A DNA stretch of 64,000 bases from Patescibacteria group bacterium (lineage in GTDB: Bacteria > Patescibacteriota > Patescibacteriia > UBA1558 > GWA2-36-10). The position numbers were made by a program, and so were the translations under genes. A model generated the notes under the pieces. The model was not told the origin of the DNA and made no database searches. It saw only the letters and a list, made by a program, of their open reading frames with translations. Shown piece after piece: positions 9,376 to 42,725 of the stretch (the first letter of the stretch is position 1; the number at the start of each line of letters is the position of its first letter). The stretch is from positions 81,525-145,524 of the forward strand of contig JBAZSG010000002.1 in assembly GCA_041662585.1 (NCBI GenBank), written 5' to 3'.

Positions 9376-10647
9376 ATGGCAACAAATAATATAGCAGCCG
9401 CTATAAAACAAATTGCTGAAGAAAAAAACTTGTCTATGGAAGCTATCATTGGAGCTATAGAAGCAGCTCTAGCAGCAGCTTACCGTAAAGAGTTTGGCAA
9501 TAAAAATCAAAATATCAAAGTAATCTTCAATGCTGACAATGGGCAAACAGCAGTTTTTGATGTAAAAACTGTAGTTGAAGATGTTGATTTGGAAGAAGAA
9601 GAACGTCTTGTTGAAGAACAAAGAGAAAAAAGAGAAGCTGGTGAAGAAATTGCTGAAGAAGATATTGTAAAAAGATTTAATCCTCGTAATGAAATTATGC
9701 TCTCTGAAGCCATCAAAGATAATGATGATTATAAAATTGGTGATATTATAGAAAATAAATTGGAAGTGCCAGAAGAATATGGTCGTATGGCTGCTCAAAC
9801 TGCCAAACAAGTGATTGTCCAAAGACTTCGTGAAGCTGAGCGTGACCATATCTTTAATGAATACAAAGATAAAGAAGGTGAGTTGGTACTTGGTACAATA
9901 CAGAGAAAAGAAGGTCGTAGATTTATTGTGGATTTGGGTAAAGCAAATGCTGTCCTGCCTATTGAAGAACAAATCCGAACTGAAAGATACAATATTGGTG
10001 CTAGATTAAATTTTTTTATTGTAGAAGTACATGTTGGCAATAAAGGTCCTGAGATCGTACTCTCTCGTACTCATCCTGATATTGTCAAAGAGCTTTTTGC
10101 TACCGAAGTACCTGAGATTGCAGCTGGAACCGTAGAAATAAAATCCATTGCTCGTGAAGCAGGCTCTCGTTCAAAAATTGCTGTAGTAGCCACTGAAGAT
10201 AATATTGATCCAGTGGGTTCTTGTGTTGGTCAACGCGGTTCTAGAGTACAGACTGTTATCAATGAACTGGGTGGAGAAAAAATTGATATTATAGAATGGA
10301 ATGAAGATATAAAGATATTTATTGCCCATGCTTTATCCCCAGCTGAAATAGAAAAAATTGAATTGGATGAAAAAAATAAAACTGCTTCCGTAAAAGTGGC
10401 TGATAACCAGTTGTCTCTAGCTATTGGTCGAGGTGGCCAAAATGTAAGATTGGCTGCAAAATTAACTACTTGGAAAATAGATATTGTTTCTTCTGAAACT
10501 GGCGATAAAATATCTGGAGACAAAGGTAATAATAAAGAAATATTAGAAAAAGAAGTAATTGTAAAAGATGAAGAGGAAAAACCAAAAAAGAAAACAAGTA
10601 AAAAAACTACCAAGTCTACTAAAAAAGACGAGAAAGTTAAAAAATAA
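9376..10647 (+). CDS. nusA: transcription termination/antitermination factor NusA
   Basis: 423 aa. N-terminal domain, S1 and tandem KH domains (VGSCVGQRGSRVQ, LAIGRGGQNVRLA), Lys-rich tail. TTGACT-17-TATTAT promoter at about 9259-9287. Confidence 0.9.
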   Translation: MATNNIAAAIKQIAEEKNLSMEAIIGAIEAALAAAYRKEFGNKNQNIKVIFNADNGQTAVFDVKTVVEDVDLEEEERLVEEQREKREAGEEIAEEDIVKRFNPRNEIMLSEAIKDNDDYKIGDIIENKLEVPEEYGRMAAQTAKQVIVQRLREAERDHIFNEYKDKEGELVLGTIQRKEGRRFIVDLGKANAVLPIEEQIRTERYNIGARLNFFIVEVHVGNKGPEIVLSRTHPDIVKELFATEVPEIAAGTVEIKSIAREAGSRSKIAVVATEDNIDPVGSCVGQRGSRVQTVINELGGEKIDIIEWNEDIKIFIAHALSPAEIEKIELDEKNKTASVKVADNQLSLAIGRGGQNVRLAAKLTTWKIDIVSSETGDKISGDKGNNKEILEKEVIVKDEEEKPKKKTSKKTTKSTKKDEKVKK

Positions 10648-10673
10648 ATTTATATTAATAACTTAAAAAAAAT

Positions 10674-12713
10674 ATGAACAATGTAATTCTTTTGGCTATT
10701 TTGGCCGCTGTAGCATCCATAATATTTGGAATAATATTAATTAAAAAAATCTTAAAAAATCCTAATGGTGACGATAAGATGAAAGAAATTGCCAAGGCTA
10801 TCCAAGTAGGAGCCAAAGCTTATCTTACTCGCCAATATAAAACCATTGCTTATCTAGCAATTGCCTTATTTATAATACTGGGATTTACTACTGACTGGCT
10901 GACAGCTTTGGCCTTTTTGATAGGAGCTGTCCTATCAGCTATGGCTGGCATCATTGGTATGAACATCTCTGTTCGCACCAATGTCCGTACTGCTGAAGCT
11001 GCTCGTAAAGGCATTCAAGCTGCTATGAATCTAGCTGTGCTTGGTGGTGCTGTTACTGGAATGCTGGTAGTGGGTTTGGCTCTACTTGGTGTCAGTCTAA
11101 TGTTTGCTCTACCATTTATAGAAATACATCACTTAATAGGTCTGGGTTTTGGAGGTAGTCTTATCTCTGTTTTTGCTCGCTTGGGCGGTGGTATTTTTAC
11201 CAAAGCAGCTGATGTTGGAGCTGACTTGGTAGGCAAAGTAGAAGCTGGTATTCCTGAAGATGACCCCAGAAACCCAGCTGTAATTGCTGATAATGTAGGT
11301 GACAATGTAGGCGATTGCGCTGGTATGGCTGCTGATTTATTTGAAACATACGCTGTTACTTTGGTAGCGGCAATGTTGCTCGGATCTCTTACTTTTGCTG
11401 GTAAAGAAAGTGCCGTATTATATCCTCTAGCTCTGGGTGCTGTAGCTATCCCTGTTTCTATTATTGGTTTATTTTTTGTAAAACTAGCTAAAAATAAAAG
11501 TGTAGAAGAAATTGCCAAAGGTGATTATATAATGAAGGCTTTATACAAAGGATTATTGGCTGCTGGTATTTTGGCGGCTGTAGCTTTTTATTTTGTGACT
11601 GACAAAATGATGTCTAATCTAGTAACTGAAAAAGCTATAAATATATATTGGGCAGCTTTGGTTGGATTGGTTGTAACGGCTTTTATTGTTTGGCTAACCG
11701 AATATTATACTTCTACAAAATATAAACCCGTGCGTTCAATTGCCAAAGCTTCTGAAACTGGTCATGGTACAAATATTATTCAAGGCTTGGCTATATCTAT
11801 GAAAGCAACTGCTTGGCCGGTACTAGTTATAGTGGCTGGTATTTTGGCTGCTTACTCTTTTGCTGGATTATATGGTATTGCTGTTGCTGCTATGAGCATG
11901 TTATCACTAGCTGGCATTATTGTGACTATTGATGCTTATGGACCTATTACTGATAATGCTGGTGGCATTGCCGAAATGGCCAATATGCCAGAAGAGGTCC
12001 GAAATATTACTGACCCACTAGATGCTGTGGGTAATACCACCAAAGCTGTAACCAAGGGATATGCCATTGCTTCAGCTGGACTAGCCGCCTTAGTACTGTT
12101 TGCAGCCTATACTGAAGAATTGTCTCAAAAGGGAATTAGTCTAGCCTTTAAATTGGATGATCCCTATGTCTTGGCTGGATTATTTATTGGTGGATTATTA
12201 CCATATATATTTGGTGCACTGTCTATGGAAGCTGTTGGTAAGACTGCTGGCTACATTGTTCAAGAAGTTCGTCAACAATTTAAAGATCATCCTGGTATTA
12301 TGGATGGTAGCGAAAAACCAAACTACAGTTCTGCTGTAGATATAGTAACCAAAGGAGCTTTAAAACAAATGATAGCGCCTGCTCTTATACCTGTGCTTGT
12401 CCCTATTTTGATTGTCATTGTTTTTAGAGGAGACAATGGTTGGTTGGTCCTAGGTGGTACCTTAGTAGGTAGTATCGTCACTGGAATATTTATGGCAATA
12501 TCCATGACTTCTGGTGGTGGTGCTTGGGATAACGCCAAAAAATATATTGAAAGTGGTCATCATGGTGGTAAAAATAGTGAAGCTCACAAAGCTGCTGTCA
12601 CTGGTGATACAGTGGGTGATCCTTACAAAGACACTGCTGGCCCAGCCATCAATCCAATGATTAAAATTTTAAATGTGGTAGCATTACTTTTAATTGCTGT
12701 CCTAATCGCCTAA
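10674..12713 (+). CDS. hppA: membrane-bound proton/sodium-translocating pyrophosphatase
   Basis: 679 aa, about 16 TM helices, signature [18 protein letters not shown] and C-terminal [17 protein letters not shown]. Confidence 0.92.
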
Positions 12714-12719
12714 AGAATT

Positions 12720-14000
12720 ATGCAAATTACTAAAAAAAATTTAGCTAAAAATCAAGTAGAACTAGCTATAGAAGTAAGTCTTGAAGAAATGAAGCCCTTT
12801 TTAGAAAAAGCTGCTTCTAAAATGAGCCAACGCACCAAATTGCCAGGTTTTAGACCAGGCAAAGCTCCTTATGAATTAGTAAAAAATAAATTTGGAGAAA
12901 TGGCTATTTATCAAGAAGCTCTTGATATGATTGTCAGTGATTCATTTTACAAAACTATAACTAGTGAAAAAATTGAAAGTATTGGACAACCGGAAATCAA
13001 AGTTGAAAAAATAGCTCCCGGTAATCCTCTATCATACATTGCTATAGTGTCTCTGCTACCAAAAGTCACTCTTGGAAATTGGGAGACGCTAGAAATAAAA
13101 AAAAGATCAGTCAAAGCTAGTGAAGAGGATATAAATAAAACTCTGGAACAATTACAAAATATGCAAGTTAAAGAAAGTGTGGTTGATAGAGCTGCGAAAA
13201 AGGGAGATAAAGCCGAAGTTGACTTTGAGGTTTTTATTGATAAAGTAATAATTGAAGGTGGTAAAAATACCAAATATCCTTTGGTCCTAGGTGAAGGAAG
13301 AATGATTCCTGGATTTGAAGATCAAATCATTGGTATGAAAAAAGATGAAGCCAAAGAATTCGAATTGACTTTTCCTAAAGAATATTTTCAAAAAAATCTA
13401 GCCGGCAAACTTGCTACTTTCAAAGTAAAACTAATCAATGTCTATGAAAGACTCTTGCCAAAACTAGATGATGAATTGGCCAAAGGCATTGGTATGGAAA
13501 ATATGGCAAAACTGAAAGAACAATTGACTCAAAATATCAGCCAAGATAAAGAAATCAAAGAAAAACAAAGAGTTGAAAGTGAGGCTATTGAAGCTATTGT
13601 CAAACAAGCCAAAATTGAAGATATTCCTGAAAATCTAATTGCTAGTGAAATTCATAAAATGTCTCATGAGCTAGAACATGGTATTGGTCAGCAAGGTATG
13701 GATATGGCTGGTTATCTCAAATCAATCAATAAAACCCAAGAGGATCTAAAAAAAGATTTTCGTCCTCAAGCAGAACAGAGAATACAAGCTGCTTTGGTGA
13801 TGCGTCAAATTGGACAAGATGAAAAAATAAAAATTGATGATCAGCAGGTTGATGAAGAAATCAAAAAACAAAAAGAAATGCATAAAGACAATAAAGAGGC
13901 TCTCCAAAATATAGCTCATCCTGGTTATCGTCAACACTTGACCAATATTATGATTAATCAAAAAATAGTAGATTTAATAGCTAGTAAAATTATAAAATAA
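12720..14000 (+). CDS. tig: trigger factor
   Basis: 426 aa. N-terminal ribosome-binding GFRPGKAP motif, FKBP-type PPIase middle domain. Confidence 0.9.
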   Translation: MQITKKNLAKNQVELAIEVSLEEMKPFLEKAASKMSQRTKLPGFRPGKAPYELVKNKFGEMAIYQEALDMIVSDSFYKTITSEKIESIGQPEIKVEKIAPGNPLSYIAIVSLLPKVTLGNWETLEIKKRSVKASEEDINKTLEQLQNMQVKESVVDRAAKKGDKAEVDFEVFIDKVIIEGGKNTKYPLVLGEGRMIPGFEDQIIGMKKDEAKEFELTFPKEYFQKNLAGKLATFKVKLINVYERLLPKLDDELAKGIGMENMAKLKEQLTQNISQDKEIKEKQRVESEAIEAIVKQAKIEDIPENLIASEIHKMSHELEHGIGQQGMDMAGYLKSINKTQEDLKKDFRPQAEQRIQAALVMRQIGQDEKIKIDDQQVDEEIKKQKEMHKDNKEALQNIAHPGYRQHLTNIMINQKIVDLIASKIIK

Positions 14001-15344: not shown

Positions 15345-15421
15345 TGGAGCGGGCGACCGGGCTCGAACCGGCGACCTTTTCCTTGGCAAGGAAATGTTCT
15401 AGCCAACTGAACTACGCCCGC
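15345..15421 (-). tRNA. tRNA-Gly (anticodon GCC)
   Basis: Reverse complement: GCGGGCG acceptor, anticodon loop TTGCCAA, T-loop TTCGAGC, CCA. Confidence 0.8.
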
Positions 15422-15438
15422 TCATTTAATAATTCTAT

Positions 15439-15511
15439 ACGAGTGATCCCGCAAAGCGGGACGACCTTTTCCTTGGCAAGGAAATGTTCTAGCCAACTGA
15501 ACTACACTCGC
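15439..15511 (-). pseudogene. tRNA-Gly(GCC)-like second copy with non-canonical T-loop (GCTTTGC), a G1-U72 wobble pair and no encoded CCA; probably a degenerate or pseudo tRNA
   Basis: A 43-bp stretch (15463-15505) is identical to 15372-15414 of the tRNA-Gly (D-arm through variable loop). The T-arm is replaced by GTCCC-GCTTTGC-GGGAT. Confidence 0.4.
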
Positions 15512-20474: not shown

Positions 20475-20723
20475 ATGGATCAATATATCTCCCCAGAGGA
20501 ACAAAGACTGGTTATAGAAAAACTGTATTATTCTACAGATTCTATCACTAGTACCAATAAATTTAATAAGCTTTATCAAGATAAGTTGGGCAAAATGGGT
20601 GATCGCACCCTAAGAATGTATGATTTTGCTAGTAAAATGAAGGAAACCGACTTCAAGGTCTATGATATAGAGCGTTTTACCAAAGAAATCACTGGCCAAG
20701 ATATTGATTTAGACTCTTTATAA
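20475..20723 (+). CDS. hypothetical protein (82 aa, charged, no TM)
   Basis: Only + strand ORF between minus-strand genes. Its 3' end overlaps the TruB-fusion ORF by 35 nt. Coding status uncertain. Confidence 0.25.
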   Translation: MDQYISPEEQRLVIEKLYYSTDSITSTNKFNKLYQDKLGKMGDRTLRMYDFASKMKETDFKVYDIERFTKEITGQDIDLDSL

Positions 20724-21792
20724 TATCTTGCGGGGCTATTTTATTTTTGAGCAAACTAGCTTTATCTACCTTATCAAGTGGTAAAGCTTTTTTTATAACA
20801 AAATCTCCAATAGCTACGCGACGAAGATCTGCCAACATAGCACCCGTACCCATGGCCCTACCCAAATCATAAGCTAATGATCTTATATAGGTGCCAGCTG
20901 AAACCGATGTTTCTAAACTTAAATTTGGATATTTAAATTTATTTATTTTTAATTTATATATTTCAATTTCTTTACTAGGTGCTTTGACCTCTTTACCAGC
21001 TCTGGCTAGTTTATACAATTTTTTACCAGCCACTTTTTTGGCACTATAAATAGGCACAACTTGTATTTGTTTACCAAAAAACTTATCCAAAACTTTACCA
21101 AGCTCTACTTTGCCAAAACCTTGGGCGTTTTTATTTATACTTATATTACCCTCCATGTCATAAGTGTCTGATTCTTGACCAAAAATAACATCAGCTTGAT
21201 ATATTTTGGGTAAATCATGAAACCAATCTAATAATTTAGTAGCTTTACCACTAGCCAAAATCATCAGACCAGATGCCAAGGGATCCAGTGTCCCTGAAAA
21301 ACCAACTTGCTTAAGATTTAACACTTTCCTCAAAACTGAAACTACATGAAAAGAATTTACTCCTTTTGCTTTGTCTATCAAATAAATTCCCGCTGATTTA
21401 TCTTCCAAAATAGAGCGCAATTTAGAAGATTTATATAAATTGCTTTTGACAAATTTTATAATCTCTAAATGTAAATTATCAAAATTAGAAAAAGTATCTT
21501 GTAGATATTTTTGATCCTCCCCCATACACAAAATATCTGGCTGAAGAGTATTTATCAAATACTTGGCGTCGTGAATAGTGTTGCGCACAAAAACAGTAAA
21601 ACCCAAATTTTCTAAATTGCTTTTTCTAATCTTTTGATTATTATATGGGATATAATTTCGCAAAGATTGGATAGCTTGATCTGATTCTAAAACCACTGTT
21701 ACTTGACCAAGTTTTTTGGCCAAAGCCAAAATATGCATATGTCCTGGATGCAAAATATCAAATTTTCCAAAAACCAATACTTTTTTTATCAT
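20689..21792 (-). CDS. truB: fusion protein: N-terminal HxGH nucleotidyltransferase domain (RibL/TagD/FMN-adenylyltransferase-like) + tRNA pseudouridine(55) synthase TruB
   Basis: 367 aa. Residues 1-140 have FGKFDILHPGHMHIL (HxGH cytidylyl/adenylyltransferase motif). Residues about 150-367 have GFSGTLDPLASGLMILASGKATK and IYQADVIFGQESDTYD (TruB catalytic Asp region). Confidence 0.8.
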   Translation of the reverse strand: MIKKVLVFGKFDILHPGHMHILALAKKLGQVTVVLESDQAIQSLRNYIPYNNQKIRKSNLENLGFTVFVRNTIHDAKYLINTLQPDILCMGEDQKYLQDTFSNFDNLHLEIIKFVKSNLYKSSKLRSILEDKSAGIYLIDKAKGVNSFHVVSVLRKVLNLKQVGFSGTLDPLASGLMILASGKATKLLDWFHDLPKIYQADVIFGQESDTYDMEGNISINKNAQGFGKVELGKVLDKFFGKQIQVVPIYSAKKVAGKKLYKLARAGKEVKAPSKEIEIYKLKINKFKYPNLSLETSVSAGTYIRSLAYDLGRAMGTGAMLADLRRVAIGDFVIKKALPLDKVDKASLLKNKIAPQDIIKSLNQYLGQ

Positions 21793-21900
21793 ACTAAGAA
21801 CTATATTATACTATATAATCCAAATTGACAAAAAATGACTACTATGGCTACAATATAAGGGTATTTAATATATCTAAATAAATGAAAGGGGGTAGATAAT

Positions 21901-22149
21901 ATGGGCAAATATTGCTACTGTCCAACATCCTTCAATGTGCTAATGGGTCTTTTTACAATTTTTTTAGCTGTTTCAGCATTTTTAAATGCCTGGAATATTT
22001 ATATGCCATTGTGGTTGATAATACTTACTTTTGTCCTAGGAGTTCTACTAATTTTTTTAAACTCAGCCAATCCTATTCATGAAAAAATCAGTGGTGATGA
22101 TTTGAGTGTCGAAAAAGCCAACAAAATACACGCTAGTGAAGGATACTAA
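21901..22149 (+). CDS. small membrane protein, hypothetical
   Basis: 82 aa, 2 TM helices. Unusually strong SD GAAAGGGGGT 8 nt upstream of the ATG. Confidence 0.45.
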   Translation: MGKYCYCPTSFNVLMGLFTIFLAVSAFLNAWNIYMPLWLIILTFVLGVLLIFLNSANPIHEKISGDDLSVEKANKIHASEGY

Positions 22150-22160
22150 CCCCCTCCCAA

Positions 22161-22227
22161 CCTCCCCTTAACAGGGGAGGAAAATAAAAGTCCCCCTGTT
22201 AAGGGGGATTTAGGGGGTTATTTTTTT
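22161..22227. terminator. GC-rich double hairpin (CCTCCCC-TTAACA-GGGGAGG and TCCCCC-TGTTAA-GGGGGA) followed by a T-run; bidirectional terminator between the convergent 21901 gene and the PBP gene
   Basis: Read directly. The two hairpins are mutually complementary, so a cruciform or alternative pairing is possible. Confidence 0.5.
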
Positions 22228-26448: not shown

Positions 26449-27072
26449 ATGGATATAAAAAATAGCCCCTCAAAACATTTAGCAGTTGGTATTTTTTCAC
26501 TAGTCATAGTATTTATTCTACACTTCATGCTCAATATAGAATGGACAGTGGCTTTTGCTAGAACAGCCTTTGTACTTCTGTTTCTCACTCTACTTATTGG
26601 TCCTATGGTAAGAATTAAAGTACCTAGTAAAGAAGTGACCCCTAAGATAAAGCCTTGGAGTTGGCGTGGTGAATTGGGGATTTGGTTTGCTATTATGGCT
26701 ATAGCTCACTTCATAATCCTACTTATTGAAAGCCCACTTACACAACTCATAAAACTCGGCGGTTCTGGTTATAGTCTAACCAACTTCATTGGCTTAATAG
26801 CTCTAGTTATATCAATAGTATTAGCCTTTGCTTCTTTTGAAAAGGTAATTAAATTTTTAGGTGTCGCGTCATGGAGAGTATTGCATAGCATGACTTATGT
26901 AGTCTTTTATCTAGTAGCAGCTCATATGATCTATTTTCAATTTTTCTCAAGTTATGGAGAGGTGGGTCCTGATTGGTTTGGCTGGCTAGCCGTAGCTATG
27001 GCTATTTTGATTATAACCTTACAAATAATAGCTTTTATCAAAACCATCCTGTGGCAAAATAAAATTCAATAA
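26449..27072 (+). CDS. membrane protein, ferric-reductase-like/MsrQ (YedZ)-like transmembrane domain (tentative)
   Basis: 207 aa, about 6 TM helices with conserved His residues in the TMs (AHFIILL, LHSMTYVVFYLVAAHMIYF). Confidence 0.3.
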   Translation: MDIKNSPSKHLAVGIFSLVIVFILHFMLNIEWTVAFARTAFVLLFLTLLIGPMVRIKVPSKEVTPKIKPWSWRGELGIWFAIMAIAHFIILLIESPLTQLIKLGGSGYSLTNFIGLIALVISIVLAFASFEKVIKFLGVASWRVLHSMTYVVFYLVAAHMIYFQFFSSYGEVGPDWFGWLAVAMAILIITLQIIAFIKTILWQNKIQ

Positions 27073-40829: not shown

Positions 40830-41216
40830 TTATTGTGGTATGGCTACCCCAGTGGCGTTGCCCAAGGCCATCATCACGGTCCTAGTCAAAATATAAGCTA
40901 AGAAGGCAATTGATATACCTATCAAAGCGTTTTTTATACTCGTTTTGGCAGCCAATACTTTCTCTGGATTACCACCTGAAGTCATCCAATTAAATCCGGC
41001 TGATACTAAAAAATAAGTAAAAAACATCATAAAGGCTCCCAAAAAACCATTGATCCATCTACCCACGACCACATAAACATCGGCATCTTCTCCCATAGGG
41101 AAGTTTGCTTCTCTAGCTGCTGTATCAAGTCCAGAATCAATAGGAGCTGCTAAAGTAATGATCGGCAACACAATCAATAATAAAAAAATGCTTAATTTAT
41201 ATTTCGTTAGTTTCAT
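40830..41216 (-). CDS. small secreted two-TM protein, VirB2/TrbC-pilin-like topology (paralog 4)
   Basis: 128 aa. Signal peptide (LLIVLPIITLAAP), TM1, loop AGFNWMTSGGNPEKVLAAK, TM2. Confidence 0.4.
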   Translation of the reverse strand: MKLTKYKLSIFLLLIVLPIITLAAPIDSGLDTAAREANFPMGEDADVYVVVGRWINGFLGAFMMFFTYFLVSAGFNWMTSGGNPEKVLAAKTSIKNALIGISIAFLAYILTRTVMMALGNATGVAIPQ

Positions 41217-41297
41217 TTTTTGTTTTTAAACTCTAGTCTAAGCTCTAGTAGGTCATTGTGATAGATGACCTACTATAGTCTAGACTACATAGGTCAA

Positions 41298-41654
41298 CTA
41301 TGCTGTGGCGGTATAAAGTTCGCTCAATACGAATCTAGATACAGCGTAAGCTGTTAGTACGATTACTAGACCGACAACGCCAGCGCCGATAAGTTTTTTG
41401 GCTTCGTCAACTTTTTCAGTATTACCTTGAGAAGTCATCCATTTGAAACCACCCATCAAAATAATTAAAGTTGTTAAAATTCCTAAAAATCCTAAGATGA
41501 TGTTTACTACACCACCAATAGTTTCTCTTAATGGTCTTGAACCTAAAGCAATGTCAGTGTCTGTAAAATCATTATATCCCCAAGAACCAAGATTTGCTTG
41601 AGCGTTAGCTAGAGCTGGAAATGCTAATAAGGCTAATGTAAGTATTTTTTTCAT
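41298..41654 (-). CDS. small secreted two-TM protein, VirB2/TrbC-pilin-like topology (paralog 3)
   Basis: Start moved to ATG 41654 (MKKILTLALLAFPALANA signal peptide), preceded by strong SD GAAAGGGGGTGA. The provided ORF extends to 41702. Loop GGFKWMTSQGNTEKVDEAKK. Confidence 0.4.
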   Translation of the reverse strand: MKKILTLALLAFPALANAQANLGSWGYNDFTDTDIALGSRPLRETIGGVVNIILGFLGILTTLIILMGGFKWMTSQGNTEKVDEAKKLIGAGVVGLVIVLTAYAVSRFVLSELYTATA

Positions 41655-41741
41655 ATTTTCACCCCCTTTCAAATATAATAGATTAATTAAATTATAGAAC
41701 AAAAATAAGCTTTTTACAATCTGTTATCAACAGATATTTAA

Positions 41742-42077
41742 TTATGCCTCACTACCTATCAATGTAAAGACAAAATTGAGTATTACATAGCTCATAAATA
41801 TAATAATCAGGCCTAATATAGCCCACAAGACAGTGTCTTTGCCTTGTTTTAATCTGTCGGCACTTCCTTGAGAAGTCATCCATACTATACCTCCCCAAAC
41901 CAGCATAAACAAAGCTATGGCACCTGTCACCCCCATCAAACCCTTAATCATTTGCCCGGCAAGCTCTGGAATATTTTCAGCTTGTAAAGGATTTGGTATC
42001 TTTATCCTTGCACTTTGTGCTCTAGCCGTATAAGGAAGAAACATGATAAGAGCTATAAAAAGTTTTTTAATAAACAT
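41742..42077 (-). CDS. small secreted two-TM protein, VirB2/TrbC-pilin-like topology (paralog 2)
   Basis: 111 aa. Signal peptide ...YTARAQ, TM1, loop GGIVWMTSQGSADRLKQGKD, TM2. Confidence 0.4.
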   Translation of the reverse strand: MFIKKLFIALIMFLPYTARAQSARIKIPNPLQAENIPELAGQMIKGLMGVTGAIALFMLVWGGIVWMTSQGSADRLKQGKDTVLWAILGLIIIFMSYVILNFVFTLIGSEA

Positions 42078-42092
42078 AAAGCTATTGATAAA

Positions 42093-42725
42093 TTAGTTAT
42101 ATACACAAACTTGTCCATTAGGACATATGCCTGTAGCATTTGGCACTGGTTCTAAATCGACTATTGGTGGTGAAACACATTGACCAGTTCTAGTATCAGC
42201 ACTTTGACTTAAAGCCTGTATTTCACAAATAGTCAAACATTTTTCAGAAAAATTATCTACTGGACCAGGTGGAATAACACCTGAACATTGTTTGTCTGCA
42301 CCACAAGATGTCCCTCTAGCAGCGCCCTGACAAGAAGCAAACTCTCCTTCTTCAATCCTAAACTCCTGACGAACATTCAATACATCGTTGACAAAAAAAG
42401 TTAAAATCAAATAACTACCAAAGGCTAAGATAAGTGCAAAAACAGTATTGAGCATAATGGTTTTTCCTTGATTTACTTTTTCAGCACTACCTCCAGAAAT
42501 AAGCCAACGTATACCGCCCCAAACAAAAAACAATAAAGCTACGGCCCCCATAGCTCCTAATAATAACTGAATTAAAGAAGAAAAAGCTATAGCTATATCA
42601 GCAACACTACAATCCCCTCTACCAGTACAATAAGCCACGTCGTCCAAAAAACCAGCCTGAGCTATATGAGGCAATATAAATAATACACCACTAATCAATA
42701 AAATTTTAGTTATTCGGTGGTACAT
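42093..42725 (-). CDS. small secreted two-TM protein, pilin-like (paralog 1) with C-terminal Cys-rich extracellular domain
   Basis: 210 aa. Signal peptide ...HIAQA, loop GGIRWLISGGSAEKVNQGK, then an about 90-aa tail with at least 10 Cys (CQGAARGTSCGADKQCSG...CPNGQVCVYN). Confidence 0.4.
   Translation of the reverse strand: MYHRITKILLISGVLFILPHIAQAGFLDDVAYCTGRGDCSVADIAIAFSSLIQLLLGAMGAVALLFFVWGGIRWLISGGSAEKVNQGKTIMLNTVFALILAFGSYLILTFFVNDVLNVRQEFRIEEGEFASCQGAARGTSCGADKQCSGVIPPGPVDNFSEKCLTICEIQALSQSADTRTGQCVSPPIVDLEPVPNATGICPNGQVCVYN

Follow-up and report, generated by a model that had tools for sequence, protein, structure and literature searches.

In the 64,000-nucleotide stretch of the Patescibacteria group bacterium contig JBAZSG010000002.1 analyzed here (hereafter, the window), a single reverse-strand gene encodes a 367-amino-acid protein that joins an N-terminal nucleotidyltransferase (NT) domain with the HxGH signature to a TruB-type tRNA pseudouridine synthase. 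On balance, judging from sequence comparisons, this protein is probably bifunctional, combining a RibL-type flavin mononucleotide (FMN) adenylyltransferase (FMNAT) with a tRNA pseudouridine-55 (Ψ55) synthase that lacks the PUA domain. In the mechanism we propose, residues 1-133 would adenylylate FMN with ATP (possibly, also with CTP) to produce flavin adenine dinucleotide (FAD; EC 2.7.7.2), and residues 134-351 would isomerize U55 of tRNA, without a PUA domain as in all TruBs of this Parcubacteria lineage. The two active sites would probably work independently, and the old, vertically inherited fusion would guarantee their co-expression in a streamlined genome. The FAD synthase of this organism would then be hidden in a gene annotated only as truB.

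Domain architecture of the fusion protein

The reading frame runs for 367 codons from the ATG without internal stops, and the open reading frame (ORF) scan, Pfam, NCBIfam and the AlphaFold2 (AF2) model agree on an HxGH NT domain in front of TruB in one ORF, as an earlier note on this DNA had stated. The gene and its parts are:

20689-21792, reverse strand: complete ORF of the NT-TruB fusion protein, 367 amino acids, ATG start, stop codon at 20689-20691 (ORF list and sequence)
21394-21792, reverse strand: N-terminal RibL-like HxGH NT domain, residues 1-133, probable FMN adenylyltransferase by sequence (Pfam, NCBIfam, hhalign, AF2)
21739-21750, reverse strand: HPGH (HxGH) nucleotide-binding and catalytic motif, residues 15-18 (sequence reading)
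21511-21522, reverse strand: GEDQ (GxDQ) motif, residues 91-94, common to archaeal RibL (LGxDQ) and the structure 3glv (LGYDQ)
21424-21432, reverse strand: KSS motif, residues 121-123, corresponding to the C-terminal phosphate-binding motif ISSTxxR/(H)SS, aligned with the SS of RibL and 3glv
20740-21393, reverse strand: TruB catalytic domain, residues 134-351 (TruB_N and TruB_C_2), predicted tRNA pseudouridine-55 synthase without a PUA domain (TIGR00431, Pfam, Foldseek)
21283-21285, reverse strand: codon of the catalytic aspartate, D170 of GTLDP (sequence reading)
20692-20739, reverse strand: short helical C-terminal tail, residues 352-367, where other TruBs have the PUA domain (helices 344-350 and 354-366 by DSSP of the model; no Pfam domain past residue 351)

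In the Pfam scan of the fusion protein, CTP_transf_like covers residues 7-95 (32.2 bits, gathering cut-off 21), TruB_N residues 155-303 (E 2e-45) and TruB_C_2 residues 304-351; the HxGH segment, residues 8-22, reads FGKFDILHPGHMHIL. The generic NCBIfam model of adenylyl- and cytidylyltransferase domains, cyt_tran_rel, scored 40.5 bits at the N-terminus (cut-off 27.7), and the TruB equivalog model TIGR00431 scored 196.1 bits (cut-off 151.45) over residues 135-340. Thus, the domain-boundary mapping that the note had proposed put CTP_transf_like and TruB_N above and FAD_syn below their cut-offs, and the N-terminal domain does match nucleotidyltransferase models. Neither PUA nor TruB_C was matched in the Pfam scan, with only 16 residues left after TruB_C_2, in agreement with the noted lack of a PUA domain.

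The full-length AF2 model, built with 69 homologs, has a mean predicted local distance difference test score (pLDDT) of 94.3 and a predicted template modeling score (pTM) of 0.88, with no disordered linker: the last helix of the NT domain (122-130) almost directly joins the first TruB strand (135-141). In this model, the two domains make up a compact protein and not a pair of beads on a string. The NT domain (pLDDT 91.4) adopts a Rossmann-like nucleotidyltransferase fold. In Foldseek searches, the TruB part matched 1ze2, 1r3e and 1k8w with E-values of about 1e-25, and its alignment with Thermotoga maritima TruB (1ze2/1r3e) shows 34% identity and root-mean-square deviations in the range 1.6-1.8 Å over 221 columns, that is, over the catalytic domain only (221 of approximately 300 target residues). 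No solved structure among the Foldseek PDB matches spans both domains. D170, which we take to be the equivalent of Asp48 of Escherichia coli TruB, does not vary across an alignment of 69 TruB sequences, fused and standalone; other core residues are invariant as well. Unlike the TruBs of E. coli, T. maritima and Mycobacterium tuberculosis, which have a C-terminal PUA domain, the window protein lacks this domain and carries an additional enzyme domain at the N-terminus. The four standard tRNAs found by a tRNA scan of the window carry the GTTCRA T-loop, so that a TruB substrate exists.

Relationship of the NT domain to archaeal RibL

Profile comparisons place the NT domain in the archaeal RibL (FAD synthase) family. 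We used a profile of 18 fused N-terminal domains (A2), an alignment of 16 named archaeal RibL proteins (A5) and a profile made only from the clade of the window protein (A6). In searches of the PDB, A2 matched 3glv best (3.8e-29, over the full length of 3glv), followed by ethanolamine-phosphate cytidylyltransferase (ECT; 1e-15), TagD (3e-14), NMNAT/NadR (~1e-4), PPAT (7e-4) and the RibF-type 3op1 (3e-3); Fom1 and HldC were also matched at 1e-15 or weaker, and the scores of TagD and the related cytidylyltransferases were 45-50 bits below that of 3glv. The 3glv entry is a 143-amino-acid structural-genomics protein from Thermoplasma volcanium that was deposited as an “LPS core biosynthesis protein”; a literature search on 3GLV found no relevant paper.

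The connection of 3glv to RibL comes from archaeal sequences. A RibL sequence of Methanocaldococcus jannaschii served only as a probe to retrieve real database entries, which alone count as evidence. The M. jannaschii entry itself is not among the matches listed, and the tie to the characterized enzyme runs via Methanocaldococcus orthologs that are 96-97% identical to the probe; the probe also retrieved archaeal proteins named “FAD synthase” or “FAD synthetase” by NCBI, UniRef or JGI. For one of the Methanocaldococcus orthologs (P0276, “FAD synthetase” in JGI), 3glv is the top PDB match (5e-26), and the next six PDB families are the same as for A2, in a slightly different order. A BLASTP alignment of the window NT domain with P0276 shows 32% identity over 117 amino acids (E 3e-17). 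In hhalign comparisons with the 16 archaeal RibL sequences, A2 matched with 99.9% probability (E 1.6e-36, 126 columns) and A6 with 99.5% probability (E 5e-23, 95 columns). The PDB search with A6 again ranks 3glv highest (6e-16), the alignment extending through the KSS motif, and TagD next (1.7e-12).

The motifs agree with this placement in part. Archaeal RibL proteins (the M. jannaschii MJ1179 type, KEGG K14656, and the archaeal-type FAD synthase of Entamoeba histolytica, EhFADS) likewise consist of an HxGH NT domain of ~135-150 amino acids and share with the window domain the GxFDxxHPGH segment, a conserved arginine (R56 in the window protein, R59 in RibL), LGxDQ and the C-terminal SS, as well as 3glv as the best relative in the PDB. 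The glutamine of LGxDQ (Q98) is invariant and the aspartate (D97) nearly invariant (at least 90%) in the A5 alignment. In the window clade, R56 preserves the arginine of the RibL EEQR segment, both glutamates of which are replaced by Asn or Gln, and LGxDQ and KSS are retained. Unlike archaeal RibL, the window domain is bacterial and covalently joined to TruB.

Several other identities were considered and rejected. For a RibF-type domain, PF06574 (FAD_syn) scored 15.9 bits against a cut-off of 27 and aligned only with the HxGH segment, residues 3-30, and NF045965 (RibF_rel) scored 18 against 200. TagD (TIGR01518, 40 bits, cut-off 165.4), domain II of HldE (TIGR02199, 44.6 bits, cut-off 181.5) and archaeal PPAT (NF001985, 38.2 bits, cut-off 104) were likewise rejected, and NMNAT was rejected on the PDB profile score obtained with A2. 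The NT domain shares the general fold and HxGH with TagD, ECT/CCT, HldE domain II/HldC and the Fom1 cytidylyltransferase: in a Foldseek search of the PDB with the NT model, Fom1, 3glv, TagD and HldC all had template modeling scores of 0.7-0.8, which confirms the fold without discriminating the families. TagD has GDDW and RTEGISTT where the window domain has GxDQ and KSS.

The earlier note had described the domain as FMN adenylyltransferase-, RibL- or TagD-like. Of these three, RibL-type FMNAT is the best supported, and the TagD part falls with the failed equivalog cut-off. The further suggestion that the gene is a rearranged truB-ribF neighborhood does not hold literally, given that PF06574 remains below threshold, 3op1 is matched at 3e-3 compared to 4e-29 for 3glv, and no ribF is present at syntenic loci. 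Its premise, with ribF behind truB in most bacteria, goes too far: the adjacency is common in Firmicutes and Actinobacteria and is not known, for example, from E. coli. The NT-TruB fusion echoes the truB-ribF association with a different FMNAT family. With RibF itself (FMNAT PF06574 and Flavokinase PF01687), the window domain shares the superfamily fold, the HxGH chemistry and the association of the gene with truB, and its close relatives that are fused to Flavokinase are RibF-like proteins built on a RibL-type FMNAT. It differs from RibF in failing PF06574, in the absence of a kinase domain and in having TruB as the partner.

Association of the NT subfamily with riboflavin kinases

With the N-terminal domain alone as the query, a word-indexed search for homologs returned two matches; an exhaustive hidden Markov model (HMM) search with the profile of the fused domain was used instead. 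Among 1.84 billion representative proteins, 110 scored below 1e-30, mostly standalone proteins of 130-150 amino acids, some of which, like some fused members, are named “FAD synthetase” by JGI. The best 150 profile matches included 46 multidomain proteins, in which riboflavin kinases of two unrelated folds are, taken together, the commonest partner (8 of the 46). Flavokinase (PF01687) accounts for seven of these, six with the order NT-Flavokinase and one with the reverse order, and the unrelated archaeal CTP-dependent riboflavin kinase (PF01982) for one. The fusions with two riboflavin kinases that are not homologous to each other are classic Rosetta-stone evidence for catalysis of the next step, from FMN to FAD, by this NT subfamily. 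One of the NT-Flavokinase proteins (P0156, “FAD synthetase” in JGI) is encoded immediately upstream of the genes for riboflavin synthase (Lum_binding) and lumazine synthase (DMRL_synthase) on the JGI metagenome contig Ga0395805_0014457 (L092:3840-5700); by its domain content, it amounts to a bifunctional enzyme similar to RibF, with an FMNAT of the archaeal type, encoded within a rib operon.

The remaining partners in this set are NUDIX (6), Ham1 (3), TruB, RNase T and an AsnC-type helix-turn-helix domain (2 each), and, in single proteins, an AlkD-like domain, DTD2, a PP-loop ATPase, peptidase M15, 5-FTHF cyclo-ligase, a pterin-binding domain and a hydrolase. Fusions of the NT subfamily with Ham1/ITPase (in both orders) and NUDIX hydrolases recur (P0128, P0148, P0182, P0143, P0187), and a standalone NT gene (P0155) lies directly upstream of a gene for a Ham1-NUDIX fusion on a contig of JGI sample 3300072015. 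By analogy with NadM-Nudix, this recurring association with pyrophosphatases might reflect turnover of FAD or nucleotides.

All Parcubacteria genomes examined by Nelson and Stegen reportedly lack riboflavin synthesis and ribF, ribK and ribL, while retaining the FAD-dependent murB and trxB (PMC4508563). Given this reported absence in the presence of FAD enzymes, the NT-TruB protein is a candidate hidden FAD synthase. If it is indeed an FMNAT, the last step of FAD supply would be closed for one branch of the Patescibacteria radiation, and in other members the enzyme would be hidden in small genes annotated as “cytidyltransferase family” or in fusions with Ham1, NUDIX or riboflavin kinase. An archaeal-type FAD enzyme would then be widespread in bacteria, and a systematic annotation gap would be corrected.

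Substrate of the NT domain

Several observations weigh against an FMNAT role for the window protein. With the clade-only profile A6, the margin of 3glv over TagD falls to 11 bits, and when the window NT domain is used as a single sequence, Fom1 cytidylyltransferase (1e-9), 3glv (8e-9) and TagD (5e-7) are almost equal. The window clade forms a long branch, the most divergent one in the neighbor-joining tree of NT domains, and the ARD and PxxPEEQR motifs, invariant or almost so in archaeal RibL, are replaced by ESD and PYNNQKIR. The window domain has no cysteines at the positions of the C-terminal pair of the archaeal enzymes, to which the air sensitivity of M. jannaschii RibL has been linked. 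Evidence for a supply of FMN is also missing. No riboflavin kinase was detected in the window, with Pfam on ORFs of at least 110 amino acids and the flavokinase HMM on all frames of at least 40 amino acids, as the earlier note had correctly remarked; neither an FMN riboswitch nor a flavin transporter was found there, and the flavokinase HMM detected no riboflavin kinase within 4 kb of any of the 80 other NT loci listed. Finally, truB of sister genomes lacks the NT domain, and neither a separate NT gene nor a remnant of one was found within 6 kb of the standalone truB in those genomes.

The cysteine pair carries little weight among these points, because EhFADS, the RibL-type enzyme of Entamoeba, which also lacks it, is an active, ATP-specific FAD synthase (PMC11423594); its absence is therefore not disqualifying.

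The other sequence-based points, that is, the near-equal similarity of the window domain to Fom1, TagD and 3glv, the narrow lead of 3glv over TagD with A6, and the replacement of ARD and the EEQR glutamates, are also what would be expected if the NT domain were active but its substrate had shifted away from FMN. The new substrate could be a phospho-alcohol or phospho-sugar, such as glycerol-3-phosphate in a TagD-like envelope pathway, or another cofactor precursor, and the protein would then combine TruB with an unrelated cytidylyl- or adenylyltransferase. The window is also rich in envelope and polysaccharide genes and has no riboflavin kinase nearby. Nevertheless, we consider such a shift unlikely, if clearly the most serious competitor of the FMNAT assignment. 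The equivalog cut-offs of TagD and HldE domain II are missed by more than 120 bits; the alignment with TagD ends at about residue 94, whereas that with 3glv and RibL continues through KSS; and the RibL-specific GxDQ is retained where TagD has GDDW. Furthermore, the deeper orthologous NT-TruB branches keep the canonical ARD and group beside NT-Flavokinase proteins. Even if the substrate proves to be different, the fusions would still illustrate cleanly how domains are joined recurrently and promiscuously in streamlined genomes.

Beyond the missing riboflavin kinase, Pfam scans revealed no obvious flavoprotein in the window, and no second NT or second TruB was found there. The sole hint of flavin or heme redox chemistry seen in the window is a 207-amino-acid membrane protein (26449-27072, forward strand), encoded just downstream of tyrS, that matches Ferric_reduct, an MsrQ/FRD-like heme/flavin transmembrane domain.

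Spread and conservation of the fusion

A protein identical to that of the window (P0001) is present in NCBI, JGI and ENA, on two contigs, where the only name it carries is [quoted passage not shown]. Of the best 120 database matches, about half share the three Pfam domains of the fusion, with identities of 37-78%, and stem from numerous unrelated assemblies. Among the proteins fetched, per-domain HMMs identified 61 with the NT-TruB order, 59 of them full length (more than 340 amino acids), and five with the reverse order, TruB-NT. The resulting fusion set comprises at least 59 full-length NT-TruB proteins from NCBI, JGI, ENA and Logan assemblies, with 37-100% identity.

Eight residues of the NT domain, G9, F11, H15, G17, H18, R56, D93 and Q94, are invariant in all 59 full-length fusions, among them H15, G17 and H18 of the HPGH motif and D93 and Q94 of the GEDQ motif; K121 is conserved in 56 and S122 in 48. 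The catalytic motifs of the NT domain are thus intact. Across the fusions, the pairwise identities of the NT domain are correlated with those of the TruB domain (Pearson r = 0.82), with the NT domain evolving faster (mean pairwise identity of 40% compared to 54% for TruB), and a junction motif (ILxD...AG) is conserved. The correlated divergence, together with the invariant NT residues, indicates an old, vertically inherited fusion in which the active site of the N-terminal domain is under purifying selection.

A sample of at least 80 genome loci shows that the NT family is represented in many classes of Patescibacteria, in DPANN and other archaea, in some Spirochaetes and in other bacteria. 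At the loci listed, the NT domain is mostly standalone, and NT-TruB occurs only in Parcubacteria/Patescibacteria genomes. In the literature searched, we found no published description of a fusion of TruB with RibL or FAD synthase, nor of RibL in Patescibacteria. Both domain families are already known; the NT-TruB architecture is, by this search, new.

History of the locus

In Parcubacteria relatives, the conserved gene order is PBP1A, a small membrane ORF, truB, a small convergent ORF, rpsT, (alkD-like), holA and polA. At the syntenic site, truB is standalone in GCA_018669975.1 and GCA_020632415.1 (252-261 amino acids, without PUA), fused as NT-TruB in the window and in GCA_964402565.1, and fused as TruB-NT on one metagenome contig; neither ribF nor a separate NT gene was found at this locus in relatives. 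Overall, the standalone TruBs of sister Parcubacteria have 250-261 amino acids and likewise miss the PUA domain. The absence of PUA is therefore a trait of the whole lineage and not a result of the fusion.

In neighbor-joining trees, which rest on ~130 residues and are not robust, the fusions are interleaved with standalone clades of TruB, and among the NT domains, NT-TruB falls into two groups and TruB-NT appears at three places. At least two independent fusions, in the two orders, and several losses or gains are needed to account for this distribution.

Two small genes accompany the fusion gene. The first is an 82-amino-acid ORF (20475-20723, forward strand), convergent with the fusion gene, which it overlaps by 35 nucleotides at the 3' end. 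It has no Pfam match, and its counterparts in sister Parcubacteria are kept next to truB in synteny at 57% identity (L001:6752-6991, L003, L004:6725-6970). Being conserved and syntenic, it probably represents a genuine small gene. The second (21901-22149, forward strand), located between the fusion and PBP1A genes and divergent from the former, encodes a predicted membrane protein, also of 82 amino acids, with an N-terminal CYC motif and without a Pfam match; it is syntenic in relatives at 55% identity (L001:5627-5869).

The truB gene of the window adjoins rpsT, away from nusA. At 9376-14000 (forward strand), nusA is followed by the genes for a membrane H+-pyrophosphatase (679 amino acids, 898 bits) and for trigger factor, whereas in many bacteria infB-rbfA-truB comes next.

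Possible links between the two domains

An alternative to independent activities is that the NT domain is an accessory module of TruB that binds nucleotide or RNA and makes up for the lost PUA domain; it might, for instance, hold the acceptor/CCA end or sense ATP, and it would serve mainly tRNA modification, not cofactor synthesis. We regard this as rather improbable. It fits the absence of PUA, the compact model (pTM 0.88) without a flexible linker and the conserved junction motif, and also the joining of the two domains in both orders, with the five TruB-NT proteins at three places of the NT tree. However, the sister PUA-less TruBs have no NT domain at all, so that TruB does not need it. The catalytic residues invariant in 59 of 59 fusions imply that the chemistry is retained, as opposed to mere binding, and, judged by net charge and pI, the NT domains in fusions show no excess of basicity over the standalone ones (median net charge of +6 compared to +8.5). 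The range of partners can be read either way, given that it includes tRNA and RNA enzymes (DTD2, RNase T, PP-loop ATPase, PseudoU_synth_2 with S4) and also many domains unrelated to RNA (Flavokinase, NUDIX, Ham1, AlkD-like, peptidase M15).

Metabolic coupling of the two domains, with FAD made by the N-terminal domain handed to, or regulating, flavin-dependent enzymes that modify the T-loop or anticodon of the same tRNAs (for example, a TrmFO-type U54 methyltransferase working beside U55), or with TruB tuned by flavin or ATP status, appears less probable still. The chemistry of TruB is not known to need a cofactor, Pfam scans of the window revealed no flavin-dependent tRNA enzyme, and the promiscuous fusion of the NT domain to at least 12 unrelated partners implies that a fusion need not mean a functional link. 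What speaks for coupling is that the TruB-NT pair was fused repeatedly and in both orders, that the model shows a rigid two-domain arrangement, and that the truB-ribF linkage is widespread in other bacteria.

Taken in its boldest form, functional coupling would mean either that the RibL-like domain takes the place of PUA by acting on the tRNA or holding it, for example at the 3' CCA-adenosine, or that local FAD is passed to flavin-dependent enzymes acting beside U55. We give this only a slim chance; if true, selection would have joined TruB and an FMNAT-type domain on at least two occasions and in both orders, and there would be a mechanistic reason for the long-noticed truB-ribF linkage. Fused repeatedly and in both orders, TruB and an FMNAT-type domain make a natural Rosetta-stone case that opens the truB-ribF association to experiment.

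An assembly or sequencing artefact that merged two adjacent genes can be practically dismissed, because the survey of relatives that the earlier note had called for yielded at least 59 full-length fusions from independent assemblies with conserved junction residues, which rules out a frameshift, the identical protein is present on two contigs, syntenic fusion loci (including L012 and L033) were retrieved independently, and no evidence in favor of an artefact was found.

Other features of the window

Consensus scans around the fusion gene gave two candidate signals, of which the promoter is weak evidence, the promoter-like sites in the scan being no more numerous than the shuffled expectation:

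21803-21831, reverse strand: candidate promoter of sigma-70-like type, TTGTCA-17-TAATAT, a short distance upstream of the fusion start codon (consensus scan only)
22191-22208, strand not given: terminator-like hairpin of the upstream PBP1A gene (consensus scan)

In addition to the four standard tRNAs, Rfam detected a fifth (15438-15511, reverse strand, 44.8 bits) that was missed by ARAGORN. Approximately 50 nucleotides at its 5' end nearly duplicate the adjacent tRNA-Gly(GCC) (15345-15421), its T-arm differs and lacks GTTCRA, and CCA does not follow. Most likely, this is a decayed tandem duplicate or a tRNA pseudogene. Elsewhere in the window, four tandem small genes (40830-42725, reverse strand; 111-210 amino acids) each match the type IV secretion system (T4SS) pilin family PF18895, one of them also TrbC/VirB2; this array adjoins the genes for a DUF2079 membrane protein and a solute-binding protein.

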